Shown here: piece by piece, positions 1 through 5,175 of the stretch
Position numbering within the stretch: the first letter of the stretch is position 1
Layout: each line of letters begins with the position of its first letter
DNA from: a virus
Lineage: Duplodnaviria > Caudoviricetes
Strand: one strand, 5' to 3'
Length of the DNA stretch: 64,000 bases
IMG/VR virus record: IMGVR_UViG_3300036805_000167
Location: 74,778 to 138,777 of that record
Translations under genes and position numbers: made by a program
Notes under the pieces: generated by a model
Seen by the model: only the letters and a program-made list of their open reading frames with translations
What the model was told of the DNA's origin: nothing
The model's database searches: none

Positions 1-276
1 GCCGAGCCATCCGTGGAAACTGACACGCCTGACGAGCTGATGTCAGTCAACGAGCCGAAGGCTGACACGCCTACCGAGCCCTGGGGCGCGCCGGAGACGG
101 TGCCCAGCATCGAGCACCGTGCGCCGAAGCTGCACGCCGTCGACGACCTGTCCAAGTTGACGTTGCCGCAGCTGCGTGACCTGGCCCGCGCCGAAGGCGC
201 GAGGGTCCGTGGCTCCAAGGCTGAGGTGGCCGCCGGCATCCGCGCCAACCGGACCGAGCAGGAGGCCAGCGCATGA
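1..276 (+). CDS. Protein with C-terminal SAP/Rho-N-like DNA-binding helix pair, probably 5'-truncated by the window
   Basis: Frame is open from base 1. C-terminal LSKLTLPQLRDLARAEGARVRGSKAEVAAGI resembles a SAP/Rho-N motif. Confidence 0.55.
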   Translation, partial: AEPSVETDTPDELMSVNEPKADTPTEPWGAPETVPSIEHRAPKLHAVDDLSKLTLPQLRDLARAEGARVRGSKAEVAAGIRANRTEQEASA

Positions 277-656
277 GCCGCTGCACCGATCACTGCCCAG
301 CGCCCGGTCGGGGCAGTTGGTGGCTGTTCGTCGTCGTCTCCACCGTGGTGTTCTCGACCGTCGCCACACTCGTGGTCCGTGGTGCCACTGCCGCGGACGG
401 TGCCGCCGACGCGGTTTTCCAGTGGCTGCTGATCGCCGCCGGACTGGCGGTCGCCACAGCCGGTGCCGGAGCTATCGCCTGGGGCGTCACCGACACGGTC
501 CGCTCCCGGACGGCGGTCGCCCGGTTCCAGGTCCACAACGCCACCCTCGGCGCGCGGGCGCTGACGGCGCGGAAGGCTCCGACGGCGCTGCCCGAGGCTC
601 CGGTGTACCGCGCGGACGCCGTGCGCGTCGCCGAGACCGAGCGCGAGCTGAGCTGA
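273..656 (+). CDS. Two-TM membrane protein (possible Spd-like spreading protein)
   Basis: Two hydrophobic segments; ATGA overlap with the upstream ORF; lies in the translocase operon. Confidence 0.6.
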   Translation: MSRCTDHCPAPGRGSWWLFVVVSTVVFSTVATLVVRGATAADGAADAVFQWLLIAAGLAVATAGAGAIAWGVTDTVRSRTAVARFQVHNATLGARALTARKAPTALPEAPVYRADAVRVAETERELS

Positions 657-659
657 CCC

Positions 660-1208
660 GTGCCTCGCGTCGAGCAACGACGTGCTTCCGAGGAGTTCGG
701 GGGCAAGCGCAAGCGCCGTACCCCCGGCCGTCGAGAGACGTCGTGGCAGCGCACGTCGCGGCGTGCGGGCAACGTGTTCCGCTACGGCCGCAAGGTGCAC
801 CGGCGTCACCGCGGCAAGACCGGGGCTGTGCTGTTCCTGGTGTCCTGCGCCGGCATCGCCGCGTCGATGGTTGCGTTCCAGGGCGCCGTGCAGCTCGTGA
901 CGATCGGGGCGTGCGGCGCGGGCATGGTCGGCGGTTACGTGCTGGACCGGCGTGCGCACGCCAAGAGCGCACAGTCGACACGGCGGGTGTCGTTCGCCGA
1001 CCGACGCCGTTACGCCACGAACCGTGCTGCTGGGCGTGCGTTCGATGACGACGACCCGTCGAGCACGCGTGTGCGGGTGCGGTCGCACACCCGTGACGGT
1101 GACGGCGTCGGCACGCACACCCGCGCACGCCCCGGCGCGCACGGCACAGCTGCGAAGCGTGCTGATCGGTGGGGTACCGAGGTCGACGACGAAGGGGGCA
1201 CGGCGTGA
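660..1208 (+). CDS. Basic two-TM membrane protein
   Basis: Arg-rich N-terminus, two hydrophobic segments, GTGA overlap with the translocase start. Confidence 0.55.
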   Translation: MPRVEQRRASEEFGGKRKRRTPGRRETSWQRTSRRAGNVFRYGRKVHRRHRGKTGAVLFLVSCAGIAASMVAFQGAVQLVTIGACGAGMVGGYVLDRRAHAKSAQSTRRVSFADRRRYATNRAAGRAFDDDDPSSTRVRVRSHTRDGDGVGTHTRARPGAHGTAAKRADRWGTEVDDEGGTA

Positions 1209-4200
1209 CCGTCACCGACGACCCGAGTACCGCTGTCGCCCGCCGGCCGGTCGGTGAGCTGGTGCTGTACGGACCCCTGGACGCCGCCGACACGCTGGTC
1301 TACGGCGCGCAGTCGGTGGTGGTGGGTGCGCTGGCGTTCATCTACCAGGACTGGTTGCCGTGGGTCCGCGACGACGCCCACACCGAGCGGCTCGACAAGG
1401 CCGACCGGATCGCCGGGGCCGCCGGGGGGCGGTTGTCGCTGCGGGAGCGTGAGGCGTGGCGGGAGCGCCGGGACCGGCGGATGCGTCGCACCTGGCAGGC
1501 CGTGTCGCTGTGCGTGCTGCTGGCCGTGGCGACGTGCGTGTCGGGGTTCGCGCCGTGGCCGTCGATCGGGTACGGGCTGGCCGTGACGGCCGTGATGGTC
1601 GTGCTCGCGCTGGTGGTCGACTCGAAAGAGGCGTCACGGTGGCTGCTGCGGCTGTGCGTGCTGCCGTGCGTGTGCTCCGTGCCGTTCGGTATCACGACGT
1701 GGCGGTGGTGGCCCGCGGCCGTGCTGTGCGTGCTGGCCGTGGCGGTGTGCGTGTGGCGTGGCCTGAACGTCACGCCACCGGCACGCCGTGACGGTGGCGG
1801 CCCGAAGCTGACCCGCCGGGACTGGGCGACGTTGTGGGCCTCGGCGTCGGGCGTGCTCGCCGAGCGTGGCAAAGAGCTGGAGCGCACCGGTGACGCACAC
1901 CCGATCAGCGCGGACGGCACAGAGCTCGGTGCCGGGTTCGGAGCTCGATGCGCCGACCCCGTGAGCCCGGACGACGTGCGTGCCCTGGAGCGCAATCTCG
2001 GGTTCCCGGTGGGCTCCTCGGCGTGGGTGCCGAACCCGAAGGCCGCGGGCACCGGGGAGCTGCGGCTGCTCTGGGCCGACCCGCTGCCGCCGAAGGCGAT
2101 GCCGCGCCGGGAGCCGATGTCGCTGTCCTACACCCGGCCGTTCGAGGTGGCCCGACGCACCGGGGGCCGCGTGACGTCACTGAGCCTGAATCGGACACGC
2201 ATGCTTTTTGCGGGCAATTCGGGGTGTATTGCGCCATGGACGCGCATCTACCTCCCCGACCGCGACGAGCACGTTCGTGTCGATGATCTCGCCGCAGCCG
2301 GAGAGGCAGTCACAGTCCAGGCATGGGATCCGTCTCGTGGCTGGGTTCGGGCTCAGACTCACGGGCCCCCGTACGTAAAAGGGACCGCGGCTTTGTATGA
2401 GGTGCGGTGCTCGGACGGGGCCACCATGACAGTGACGGGTCAGCACCGGTTCCTGACCCCGACAGGATGGCGTCGACTCGACTCGTTGCGCGCTGGACAG
2501 CTTCTCGCCGCACCTGCTCGCGCCGGTGGGCAGGGAGCTTCGGGATACCCGTCAGGGTCGTGCGTAGGTGCTCCGCGTTCGACGGGAACAGGCGCAGGTT
2601 GTCCGGGTGGTTGTTCGATGTGTCGCCGTCACGATGGTCGATCACCTCGTCCGGCGTCAGGTATCGGCCGAGCCGGTCTTCCATCACGACGCGGTGGACG
2701 GACACGTGGCCGTCCCATCGTTTCGCCTGAGGATGCTCCGGCATCCGCACGCTCACGTAGCCGTGCTTGTCGACGTGATAGCCCCGTAGCTGGGTGTTCC
2801 GTGACAGGGGCACAGCCTGGTTGCGGATCGGCACGCCCTGTTCCGGAAGCTGTCGGTACAGCCACTTCCACCCCACGCCCAGCTCTCCTGCGATGGGGCG
2901 GAGCCCCCAGCCCTGCTGGTACAGCTCGACGGCTCGCACGAGGGTGGTGGGGTCCAGCATCCGTGCAGTCTCTGCTGGTGTCTTCCCGTTCGTTTTTCTC
3001 ACTGGCCACCCCAGCTTGGCGAACTGCTGACTCACGGCCGTCTGAGTCACTCCGCAGCGCCTCGCAACTTCCGTGCAGGGCAACAACTCCTCAGTGTGCA
3101 GGCGGTACGCATCTCTTACTGACATCGACCACGTCGTTTCCTTCGGCACCACTTGATGGTACCAGGTGGCTCCGGATAGAGAGCGTTACACCTGCTGGTA
3201 AAGGTGTGTATTACGACCTGACGGTGCCTGGTCCTGAGTGCTACGTGGCCGAGGGGCTGCTAAACCACAACAGTGGGAAGTCGCAGGCGCTGCAGGATGT
3301 GCTGGACGCGGTGTGCGACATGCCCGACGCGACGTGGTCGGCGATCGACCGCCAGGAGGGCCCGACGTTCAAGGCGTATCGCAATCAGTGGAACCGCACC
3401 GGCACCTTCCACGAGAGCGACGACGCGCTAGGTGAGATCAAGCGGCTCCGGGCGCTGTGCAAGCAGCGCAACCGCCGTCTCGACGAGGGCATGGATGCCG
3501 ACCTGGACGGCGAGGTCGACCAGTGGTGGATCGTCGACGAATCCGGCGAGACCCCGGACCGCCGCGGGCACGTGCTGTTCATCGATGAGCTGTCCTCGGC
3601 GACCACCGATAAGGAGTTCGCCGAGAACCTGACCCTGCTGCTCGAGGTGTGCCGCAAGTCGAGCGTGTCGGTGGTGATGGCCAGCCCCGACCTGGATACC
3701 AACCGCGTGCCGCGGGCGGTGCTCGACCAGGTCAACGTCACGGTCGGGTTCGCCTGCCCGTTCTCGGATGCGGTGCAGATGTTCGGCAAGGGCTCGACGC
3801 AGTCTGGCTGGGAGCCGTACTCGCTGGTCACGGCCACTGACGACGAGCCCAACGACGCCGGCAAGGCGTTTATCCGCGGCGGCGGCTACAACCTGCCCGA
3901 GCTGCACCGCTTCGGCGCGATGGACCGCGAGGAGATCGTGGCGCGCAACCGCGCGCGGCGGCTGTGGCGCGAGCGGATGGGGATGAGCGCTGACGTCACG
4001 CCGGACGACGTCGAAGACGCCGAGATCGTCAGCGACGAAGAGATGGCGATCCGCGCGGCGCTGGAACTCTGCGGCGACCGCGCCGGACTTCCGGTCGCCG
4101 AGGCGAAGAAGTCCCTGACTGACGCACAGATCGCGTCGGTGCGGTCGGTGGCCCCGTCCCGCCCGACGCACGACCCCGGCGCGCGTCAGTCAGTCCGCGC

Positions 4201-4252
4201 GTACCGGCGGGAAGACCTGGTCAGCGCGTTGGAGGCGTTCGACGAGGCCTGA
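1205..4252 (+). CDS. FtsK/SpoIIIE (TraB-like) membrane DNA translocase, intein-containing
   Basis: N-terminal TM helices. Removing the intein restores Walker A GNSG|SGKS. Walker B HVLFIDE, a DAGKAFI motif and a C-terminal RAYRREDL end follow. GTG at 1205 follows a purine-rich RBS. Confidence 0.85.
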   Translation: MTVTDDPSTAVARRPVGELVLYGPLDAADTLVYGAQSVVVGALAFIYQDWLPWVRDDAHTERLDKADRIAGAAGGRLSLREREAWRERRDRRMRRTWQAVSLCVLLAVATCVSGFAPWPSIGYGLAVTAVMVVLALVVDSKEASRWLLRLCVLPCVCSVPFGITTWRWWPAAVLCVLAVAVCVWRGLNVTPPARRDGGGPKLTRRDWATLWASASGVLAERGKELERTGDAHPISADGTELGAGFGARCADPVSPDDVRALERNLGFPVGSSAWVPNPKAAGTGELRLLWADPLPPKAMPRREPMSLSYTRPFEVARRTGGRVTSLSLNRTRMLFAGNSGCIAPWTRIYLPDRDEHVRVDDLAAAGEAVTVQAWDPSRGWVRAQTHGPPYVKGTAALYEVRCSDGATMTVTGQHRFLTPTGWRRLDSLRAGQLLAAPARAGGQGASGYPSGSCVGAPRSTGTGAGCPGGCSMCRRHDGRSPRPASGIGRAGLPSRRGGRTRGRPIVSPEDAPASARSRSRACRRDSPVAGCSVTGAQPGCGSARPVPEAVGTATSTPRPALLRWGGAPSPAGTARRLARGWWGPASVQSLLVSSRSFFSLATPAWRTADSRPSESLRSASQLPCRATTPQCAGGTHLLLTSTTSFPSAPLDGTRWLRIESVTPAGKGVYYDLTVPGPECYVAEGLLNHNSGKSQALQDVLDAVCDMPDATWSAIDRQEGPTFKAYRNQWNRTGTFHESDDALGEIKRLRALCKQRNRRLDEGMDADLDGEVDQWWIVDESGETPDRRGHVLFIDELSSATTDKEFAENLTLLLEVCRKSSVSVVMASPDLDTNRVPRAVLDQVNVTVGFACPFSDAVQMFGKGSTQSGWEPYSLVTATDDEPNDAGKAFIRGGGYNLPELHRFGAMDREEIVARNRARRLWRERMGMSADVTPDDVEDAEIVSDEEMAIRAALELCGDRAGLPVAEAKKSLTDAQIASVRSVAPSRPTHDPGARQSVRAYRREDLVSALEAFDEA
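2310..3149 (-). CDS. HTH-HNH homing endonuclease encoded antisense inside the intein
   Basis: Two HTH-like segments (CTEVARRCGVTQTAVS; GLRPIAGELGVGWKWL), then GYVSVRMPEHP...HRVVMEDRLGRYLTPDEVIDHRDGDTSNNHPDNL, an HNH_3-type signature. Confidence 0.9.
   Translation of the reverse strand: MPKETTWSMSVRDAYRLHTEELLPCTEVARRCGVTQTAVSQQFAKLGWPVRKTNGKTPAETARMLDPTTLVRAVELYQQGWGLRPIAGELGVGWKWLYRQLPEQGVPIRNQAVPLSRNTQLRGYHVDKHGYVSVRMPEHPQAKRWDGHVSVHRVVMEDRLGRYLTPDEVIDHRDGDTSNNHPDNLRLFPSNAEHLRTTLTGIPKLPAHRREQVRREAVQRATSRVDAILSGSGTGADPSLSWWPRPSTAPHTKPRSLLRTGARESEPEPSHETDPMPGL
3150..3164 (-). promoter_or_regulatory. Extended -10 promoter (TGgTACCAT) for a leaderless HNH transcript
   Basis: Minus-strand TGG-TACCAT at 3164-3156, then 6 nt, then GTG at 3149. 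Same geometry as the other leaderless starts in this genome. Confidence 0.65.
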
Positions 4253-4288
4253 CGATCTGACGCGGCCTGACGTTCGACCTGACGAGGA
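4248..4288 (+). repeat. Four closely spaced CTGACG direct repeats directly after the translocase gene (clt-like)
   Basis: cctgacgatctgacgcggcctgacgttcgacctgacga. Confidence 0.55.
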
Positions 4289-4297
4289 GATGACACG

Positions 4298-4492
4298 GTG
4301 ACCGAGCCATCGGGGTACGACACGCCGACCGAGGACGACGTCTCGGAAGCGTTCGAGGACGGCTTCCGCGAGGGCATGCAGGCGGCTCGTTGCGGTGATG
4401 GCTGCCAGCACCACCGCACATGTCCGCAGAGCGACGAGTACCGGCTACCGCTGCGGGACAAGCTCAAGTCGCTGTTCGGGGGGCAGCAGTGA
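4298..4492 (+). CDS. Small hypothetical protein (Cys/His cluster)
   Basis: GAGGAG RBS upstream; CGDGCQHHRTC motif. Confidence 0.6.
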   Translation: MTEPSGYDTPTEDDVSEAFEDGFREGMQAARCGDGCQHHRTCPQSDEYRLPLRDKLKSLFGGQQ

Positions 4493-4974
4493 GCCACTCG
4501 ACGGTGGTTGTGGTCGTCACGGTGCTGGTCGTCATGCTGGCGCTGTTCGGCTACGGCTTCTACCGCGGCGCCCGCTACGGCGGCAAGCTGTCCGGTGCTG
4601 CGCCGCGGCCCTCGCGAGCTCCGCACCCGGACGGCAAGGGCTGGGACCCGACCGCGGTGTACGTCTACCTCGACGCCGACCAGGCGGTGCTCTACGCCGG
4701 CATCTCGTCGGCGCCGCAGATCAGGGCTCGACAGCACTGGGACGCTCCCGATGAGGTTGAGCTGTGCTCGCAGGTGGCGAACATCCGCGCGCACTGGTTC
4801 CCGGACCGCTACGCCGCGCTCTGTGTGGAATGGGCGCTGATCCACTACTTCGACCCGCCGTACAACAAGGCGCGTAGCGGCAGCTGCGACGCGTGGACCC
4901 AGCCGCGCCCGCCGATCGTGCCGGTGACGGTGAAGATCCCTCGTCGACGGGCGCTGGCGCGCTCCTTGCGCTAG
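4489..4974 (+). CDS. GIY-YIG nuclease-like protein with N-terminal TM anchor
   Basis: Hydrophobic N-terminus, then AVYVYLD...LYAGIS..PQIRARQH...ALCVEWALI...PPYN. Confidence 0.75.
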   Translation: MSHSTVVVVVTVLVVMLALFGYGFYRGARYGGKLSGAAPRPSRAPHPDGKGWDPTAVYVYLDADQAVLYAGISSAPQIRARQHWDAPDEVELCSQVANIRAHWFPDRYAALCVEWALIHYFDPPYNKARSGSCDAWTQPRPPIVPVTVKIPRRRALARSLR

Positions 4975-5001
4975 GGCACTCTGAGGCATAGAGTGAGAGT
5001 C

Positions 5002-5175
5002 ATGACCACGGACACGCTCCTCACGCTCGAGGAGGCCGCCACTCAGCTCGGTGTGGAACCGGAAGCCGTCAAGGCTCGGCTGCGGCCTGTCGGTTCGTTC
5101 ACCGAGCCGCCCCGACACACCGTGGCGCTGTACTCGGCCAACGACGTCGCGCGGATGGCGCGGAAGCCACGATGA
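5002..5175 (+). CDS. Small HTH DNA-binding protein
   Basis: LLTLEEAATQLGVEPEAVKARL; TAGAGT -10 lies 7 nt before the ATG. Confidence 0.65.
   Translation: MTTDTLLTLEEAATQLGVEPEAVKARLRPVGSFTEPPRHTVALYSANDVARMARKPR

Follow-up and report, generated by a model that had tools for sequence, protein, structure and literature searches.

The window examined in this study, a stretch of 64,000 nucleotides (nt) from the 138.8-kb IMG/VR virus record IMGVR_UViG_3300036805_000167, contains a plus-strand open reading frame (ORF) that encodes 1027 amino acids (aa; positions 1169-4252) and is free of stop codons along its whole length. The encoded protein resembles P-loop translocases, and its Walker A motif is split by a class-1 intein (positions 2225-3271, plus strand), which is inserted between ...LFAGNSG and SGKSQ.... 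The opposite strand carries a second gene, encoding a protein with helix-turn-helix (HTH) modules and an HNH nuclease domain, in the interval between the splicing lobes of this intein. The host frame is composed of the following segments, given with the evidence on which each assignment is based (HMM, hidden Markov model; AF2, AlphaFold structure prediction):

1169-2224, plus strand: N-extein of an FtsK/SpoIIIE(TraB)-like P-loop translocase, ending in ...LFAGNSG (ORF, PHROG match, orthologue P0104)
2225-2512, plus strand: N-terminal splicing domain of the intein, 96 aa, with Cys1 as block A and T-G-Q-H as block B (HMM, alignment, AF2)
2513-3145, plus strand: filler in the host frame, 211 stop-free codons (ORF residues 449-659), rich in Arg, Ser, Pro, Gly and Ala, antisense to the body of the HNH gene
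3146-3271, plus strand: C-terminal splicing domain of the intein, 42 aa, with block F YDLTVPG...YVAEG and block G LNHN (HMM, alignment, AF2)
3272-4252, plus strand: C-extein, beginning with SGKS, the remainder of Walker A (identity to P0104)

A contiguous intein in a translocase-like gene

The host ORF matches the Pfam family Intein_splicing with 38.3 bits (cut-off 35.8), and local HMMs detect the N-lobe with an E-value of 2e-49 and the C-lobe with an E-value of 7e-24. The codon of Cys1 is located at positions 2225-2227 and the terminal His-Asn pair at 3266-3271, directly followed by Ser+1, and the downstream junction thus reads ...YVAEGLLNHN and then SGKS. Within an alignment of 15 related inteins, C1, T71 and H74 of block B, D331 of block F and H348-N349 of block G are invariant, and the +1 extein residue is S, T or C at all 64 non-redundant sites. 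In an AF2 model built with the 15-intein alignment, intein residues 1-99 and 312-349 reach pLDDT (predicted local distance difference test) values of 75-92 (75-90 in the N-lobe and 76-92 in the C-lobe), and the top Foldseek matches of the model are the mini-inteins Mtu RecA, Ssp DnaB and Npu DnaB (E approximately 3e-5, probability 1.00). The element thus combines Cys1, the TxxH of block B, blocks F and G with the HN/S+1 junction and a predicted HINT fold, and its removal restores the motif of the host protein. Together, the two lobes carry all catalytic residues and, according to the model, fold like mini-inteins.

The stretch between the lobes is of a different kind. The filler has no family match, and AF2 gives intein residues 100-311 pLDDT values of only 35-47 without any secondary structure, which is why we regard the middle of the plus frame as filler and not as a domain. 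The possibility that it represents a real domain was rejected on the grounds of the missing family match, the missing predicted structure and a ratio of nonsynonymous to synonymous substitution rates (dN/dS) above 1 in the relatives. The 211 codons are unstructured, and the sole constraint on them is the absence of stop codons. An intein of this kind may therefore accommodate an arbitrary loop sequence longer than 200 residues, a property that would be useful for intein engineering.

The assignment of the host gene is based on a PHROG FtsK/SpoIIIE-like match (E 8e-15) to residues 794-927 in the C-terminal part of the host ORF. The Pfam family PF01580 matches the P-loop of the intein-less orthologue weakly (E 0.085) and is present in the more distant intein-bearing proteins P0006 and P0007. 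This orthologue, P0104 (locus L118), is a protein of 666 aa from another metagenome that shares 41% identity with the N-extein and 69% with the C-extein of the window, and it possesses an uninterrupted AGNSGSGKS at the position of the intein junction. Around the junction, 41 of 60 nt are common to the window and this empty-site allele. When the 138.8-kb record was queried with the C-extein, its own gene was the sole match, and no paralogue was found.

An earlier note on this DNA, made from the letters of the sequence alone, had proposed a complete cis intein that splits Walker A between GNSG and SGKS, with a motif-less, stop-free plus-frame middle, and had suggested looking for intein-less alleles. 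The Pfam match, the invariant catalytic residues, the low pLDDT of the 211-codon middle and the orthologue P0104 bear out each of these points. The same applies to its description of the minus strand as a coherent HTH-HTH-HNH protein whose C-terminal tail overlaps block B; the HMM scan that it advised for both strands yields the splicing domain on the plus strand and HNH_3 on the minus strand, as set out below.

The antisense HNH gene and its candidate expression signal

The features on the minus strand are the following:

3149-2310, minus strand: putative antisense homing-endonuclease gene, HTH-HTH-HNH_3, approximately 280 aa (Pfam, PHROG, family alignment)
3161-3156, minus strand: candidate -10 box TACCAT, preceded by TGG and located 6 nt before the GTG at 3149 (family comparison)
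2841-3119, minus strand: two three-helix HTH modules, residues 12-46 and 68-104 (AF2 pLDDT 81-93, profile matches)
2556-2780, minus strand: HNH (beta-beta-alpha-metal) nuclease core, residues 125-199 (Pfam HNH_3, AF2 pLDDT 82-95)
2454-2531, minus strand: C-terminal basic helix, residues 208-233 (AF2 pLDDT 83-89, conserved in the family)
2310-2453, minus strand: disordered run-on tail and stop codon, antisense to block B and its upstream region (AF2 pLDDT 42-46)

The likely start codon is the GTG at 3149, with 3152 and the ATG at 3125 as alternatives, and the stop codon occupies positions 2312-2310. Residues 152-192 of the minus-strand ORF match Pfam HNH_3 (PF13392) with an E-value of 2.9e-10 and 40.1 bits (cut-off 24.8), and the ORF also matches HTH_23 and several PHROG HNH families with E-values down to 5e-21. 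In the HNH family alignment A1, D172-H173, N181, N185, N192 and H195 are invariant. When the sequence profile of the protein was compared with the PDB, significant matches were obtained to HTH repeats only, and a Foldseek search of the whole model against the PDB gave no significant match, with I-HmuI on rank five (E 0.3). The N-terminal DNA-binding part consists of tandem HTH modules, of which relatives possess two or three; residues 12-104 match the designed 'CAP repeat' protein 8vd6 (E 1e-9) and the CRISPR-repeat-binding protein 2lvs from Sulfolobus (E 1e-8).

The 3' part of the gene overlaps the coding sequence of the N-lobe. The last 20 codons of the basic helix coincide with the end of the intein N-domain (2453-2512), and because of this overlap, the stretch may be functional on both strands. 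Similar basic C-terminal segments are found in free-standing relatives. The point at which the tail stops differs among relatives, and the sequence 'WPRPSTAP' is kept only where the ORF runs on.

Composition and substitution pattern of the overlapping DNA both follow the nuclease. The GC content by codon position fits the HNH frame (0.68/0.51/0.76) and not the host frame, and in seven pairs of relatives with 73-81% nucleotide identity, dN/dS amounts to 0.05-0.31 in the HNH frame, whereas the same DNA read in the host frame gives 1.4-3.0. The antisense HNH gene is intact in the window and, judged from these ratios, under purifying selection in the relatives, which does not apply to the host frame along this stretch.

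The start of the HNH gene adjoins the coding sequence of the intein C-lobe. In all 17 loci of the high-GC clade to which the window belongs, a TANNNT hexamer occupies precisely the positions -12 to -7, with 6 nt between it and the ATG or GTG, and none of these 17 loci has a Shine-Dalgarno sequence before the HNH start. Since the residues that the host frame encodes over this hexamer are variable (DGT, HSS, DHT, EVS, DCI and others), it is the nucleotides that are conserved here and not the residues of the intein. This layout, TANNNT and 6 nt before the start without a Shine-Dalgarno sequence, is that of actinobacterial leaderless transcripts, and it suggests a leaderless promoter inside the intein. 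Other lineages have Shine-Dalgarno-like motifs at -14 to -10 instead. A terminator scan of positions 2100-3500 found nothing. Taken together, the conserved -10 box and the purifying selection support the view that the HNH gene would be an independently expressed unit, and an uncoupling of homing from the expression of the host gene, as suggested in the earlier note, is plausible.

The public gene call P0022 is an HNH protein of 216 aa that begins at the internal Met65 of the antisense ORF, and the 1027-aa host protein was not among the protein-search matches for the record; evidently, the dual coding confuses the gene caller in the public record. In the annotation of such loci, gene callers break up the host gene or overlook the nuclease, and usually only one strand is annotated.

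The open host frame across the nuclease gene

In the register in which the two genes overlap, codon position 1 of the HNH gene pairs with position 1 of the host codon, and the wobble position of the HNH gene corresponds to the second position of the host codon. A stop codon in the host frame arises wherever an HNH codon NTC, NTT or NCT precedes a codon starting with A. We estimated the number of stop codons to be expected by shuffling synonymous codons within the HNH gene. For the window, 3.5-3.9 host-frame stops are expected and none is present (P for zero stops 0.007-0.013), and for four relatives the same procedure yields expectations of 2.5-7.3. Over 65 non-redundant loci with a locus GC content of 32-71%, all of which share the identical antisense register, no stop is seen versus 280 expected in total; the host protein therefore has to be translated through the nuclease gene. 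A chance opening of the frame due to high GC content was rejected, since the register is prone to stops and the frame is also open in relatives with 32-46% GC.

The relatives L006 and L007 had been found via their long open ORFs, an ascertainment bias that weighs against conclusions drawn from them. It is corrected by a set of 115 loci that were retrieved by the HNH protein alone and then scanned with small HMMs of both splicing lobes. Both lobes were found in one stop-free opposite-strand ORF spanning the HNH gene in 71 of the 115 loci; a spanning ORF with one detected lobe is present in another 25, whereas 10 loci have a spanning ORF that does not match the narrow lobe HMMs. Neither a spanning ORF nor an intein match was found in 8 loci, and a single locus combines an intein match with a closed host frame. 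Hence, at least 96 of the 115 loci retrieved in this way possess an open opposite-strand ORF across the HNH gene together with intein matches. Judged from these counts, the host frame is kept open by selection, beyond what chance would allow. The earlier note had given the antisense register correctly, with NTC followed by A as source of host stops (to which NTT and NCT have to be added), and its expectations of selection on the open frame and of homologues that keep both frames open agree with the shuffling results and the HNH-based retrieval. The significance of this lies in the stability of the two-strand coding: over approximately 630 bp, one strand encodes a functional protein and the other has to meet nothing but 'no stop codon', and this holds across a wide divergence.

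The stop counts also bear on the alternative that the locus is a split (fractured) gene, whose halves are translated separately and joined in trans, with the open frame being incidental. Free-standing endonuclease genes between the halves of split inteins are known (Dassa et al. 2009, PMC2677866), and in one relative, L094, a stop directly follows the N-lobe and the HNH region contains four others. However, zero versus 280 expected stops in 65 loci, which include genomes of 32-46% GC, is not an incidental outcome. In at least 96 of the 115 loci, one ORF runs across both lobes, and in the window itself there is no stop anywhere in 1169-4252, including the end of the N-lobe. A start codon or ribosome-binding site for a separate C-half was not noted, though no search was aimed at one. 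We consider a split gene extremely improbable for the window.

In L094 (positions 1-860 of IMGVR_UViG_3300012894_000085), the reading frame of the N-extein and the N-lobe (...GAG, followed by CVRGDTEL...HKFLTQEGW...) ends at a stop directly behind the N-lobe, four further host-frame stops are distributed across the antisense HNH region, and the contig ends before any C-half. L094 may be a descendant of the split-intein ('fractured gene') type, or it may be a dead gene. The suggestion of the earlier note that the arrangement could be an intermediate toward split inteins thus finds a split-intein-like relative, which may also be a dead form.

Probable mobility, relatives and related systems

The insertion site is always the P-loop, between G-x-x-G and [S/T/C]-G-K-[S/T]. 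At the DNA level, the family consensus reads GGnGGnnnnGGn to the left of the junction and (a/t)(c/g)nGGnAAr(a/t)Cn to its right. In the window, the two halves of the putative homing site, assigned from the family consensus and the L118 allele, are:

2207-2224, no strand assigned: left half, codons FAGNSG
3272-3289, no strand assigned: right half, codons SGKSQA

The host gene encodes the large subunit of terminase at 47 of the 64 sites; the others are genes for SNF2-type helicases, Strawberry-notch-like AAA_34 helicases, an AAA ATPase and FtsK-like proteins. The splicing lobes of the window are 71% identical to those of the terminase intein L011, and in the tree the window groups with L011 and the FtsK-like L006 and L007 (Shimodaira-Hasegawa-like approximate likelihood-ratio test, 97), nested among terminase inteins. 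This grouping fits jumps between unrelated NTPase genes via their common P-loop DNA. Jumping between genes by way of the P-loop has already been proposed for other inteins (bioRxiv 10.1101/2025.01.02.630785). The P-loop appears to be a universal landing pad, which lets one element reach unrelated ATPases. Full elements are present in the window, L006 and L007, while L118 (P0104) represents the empty allele; a mini-intein allele occupies the same site in an FtsK protein (P0006/L119), and the terminase intein P0004 has a shortened middle. With the split-like L094, all stages of a homing cycle, i.e. empty, full, mini and split-like alleles, are represented.

We consider it highly probable that the locus is a selfish element coded on two strands, consisting of a class-1 intein in the P-loop codons and an opposite-strand HTH-HTH-HNH_3 gene between its lobes. 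In this model, the translocase precursor would be translated straight through the filler, the lobes would dock, and the intein including the filler would splice out and restore GNSGSGKS. The HNH protein would be made from its own leaderless antisense transcript and would nick or cut intein-less P-loop alleles, whereupon repair would copy the whole element into them (homing). Because the target is the conserved coding DNA of GxxGxGK[ST], the element could also jump between unrelated NTPase genes. The HNH enzymes are accordingly candidate nickases for DNA that encodes GxxGxGK[ST].

Several observations weigh against this two-strand element. For splicing, the antisense transcript and the nuclease activity, the model draws on inference, and a scan of positions 2100-3500 with the standard sigma-70 consensus finds no promoter. 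Furthermore, HNH and splicing-lobe identities co-vary only moderately (r = 0.50, Mantel 0/999), the HNH protein and the lobes agree in their nearest neighbour at 34 of 66 loci, and the HNH protein of the window shares approximately 40-47% identity with that of L011, compared with 71% for the lobes. Since the HNH protein is far more diverged than the lobes and the co-variation is moderate, the HNH gene may sometimes move between inteins on its own.

Taken further, these observations would fit an HNH gene that is itself the selfish passenger, targeting HNH-less (mini) inteins and using the spliced-out loop as a safe harbour, with an intein that is immobile or moves otherwise. Mini-intein alleles exist as possible targets, Gosselin et al. 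propose an origin by free-standing endonucleases that invade inteins, and the loci L008-L010 have an HNH gene with only a fragment of the intein N-domain. On the other hand, the HNH gene cannot be cleanly separated from the intein, because its start signals and its 3' end lie within the coding sequence of the splicing domains. Related inteins are moreover found at the same P-loop site in unrelated NTPases, next to empty alleles, and this requires mobility of the whole unit. We therefore regard the passenger as unlikely.

Still less probable in our view is that the HNH gene of the window is the decaying remnant of an earlier invasion, in an element that is fixed and immobile in this phage. In favour of this reading, the element is present as a single copy in the 138.8-kb record, and no very close relative was found, the best HNH identity being 51%. 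But the ORF is intact over 280 codons and has kept all catalytic residues that are invariant in the family, the signal TANNNT-N6-start is kept in the window as well, and purifying selection among the relatives is strong.

Beyond the window, the two-strand element seems fairly probable to us as a member of one very large family of P-loop-targeting inteins with an antisense HTH-HNH gene, maybe of single origin, tuned at the wobble positions, provided with its own lineage-appropriate signals inside the C-lobe coding sequence and spreading between NTPase genes. The hosts in this wider reading are terminases, SNF2 and Sno helicases, AAA ATPases and FtsK/TraB translocases, and with the same fair probability its range would comprise phages, bacteria and perhaps archaea, at a locus GC content of 32-71%.

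The general arrangement has been known since 1998. As cited in the preprint bioRxiv 10.1101/2025.01.02.630785, Gorbalenya 1998 (NAR 26:1741) and Gogarten 2002 described an antisense LAGLIDADG endonuclease in the DnaX intein of Synechocystis, and the preprint itself (Gosselin, Arsenault and Gogarten) reports actinophage inteins with antisense LAGLIDADG or VSR-like endonucleases, while the HNH endonucleases in its survey are in-frame only. Like these inteins, many of which reside in genes for the large subunit of terminase, the intein of the window is contiguous, with a stop-free host frame, an inter-lobe stretch without recognisable fold and an intact endonuclease ORF that runs antisense to the host gene between the lobes. 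It differs from the antisense LAGLIDADG and VSR-like cases in that the nuclease is of the HTH-HTH-HNH_3 type, the host is an FtsK/TraB-like translocase, and the family is very large, with one register in all 65 non-redundant members checked. The claim of the earlier note that this is an undescribed third arrangement can therefore not be upheld. A literature search, in which the coverage of subscription journals was thin, found no paper on an antisense HNH endonuclease in an intein, and it appears that only the HNH type, the translocase as host gene and the family's size are unreported.

With the fractured genes of Dassa et al. 2009 (PMC2677866), where a free-standing endonuclease gene lies between the halves of a split intein, the window shares the endonuclease gene that fills the slot between N- and C-lobes; unlike them, it has a contiguous intein, with a host frame that continues through the nuclease gene of the opposite strand, and only the relative L094 looks split. 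In-frame HNH inteins likewise unite a HINT splicing fold and an HNH-type nuclease in one element, but the nuclease of the window is outside the intein polypeptide, on the other strand and with a start and a promoter-like signal of its own. Arsenault et al. 2025 (PMC11855218) described an out-of-frame HNH hidden on the same strand of a phage methylase (ShiLan domain), without an intein. There, too, the host gene keeps an open frame through the overlapping HNH gene, whereas the HNH gene of the window is antisense and flanked by a complete intein. In a broader context, the family supports an origin of intein endonucleases in which the splicing domain comes first and the endonuclease invades later.

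Some of the related loci show deviating layouts. In L008 (positions 2716-4717; also in L009 and L010), an HNH gene whose product is 51% identical to that of the window lies among unrelated genes, and the opposite strand has only an N-lobe fragment (block B region) and no C-lobe; in L008, a second HNH_3 gene follows the first in tandem. The HNH gene of this type looks like a relocated or decayed copy. The viral contig L113 carries two inteins in neighbouring ORFs (3-1694 and 1555-4755, both on the minus strand), one with an in-frame HNH_3 followed by an HTH, which is the canonical layout, and the other with an antisense HNH. An origin of the antisense form by simple inversion of an in-frame HNH module is not supported by this single case. 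In the in-frame intein of L113, the order along the host gene is HNH and then HTH, which is the physical order of the antisense form, while an inversion would have reversed it.

The intein host gene of the window is part of a TraB/FtsK-like module (window positions 1-5175 and upstream), and the record is classed as viral by IMG/VR. The L118 contig and L006 have a similar neighbourhood, with small genes, a GIY-YIG protein downstream or upstream, and DUF2637. Finally, three terminase ORFs with an antisense HNH gene (L014:937-4323, L045:1066-4659 and L055:979-4410) have a second HINT-type domain further downstream, recognised by matches to Hint_2, PT-HINT or Intein_splicing, and these genes thus carry two inteins.

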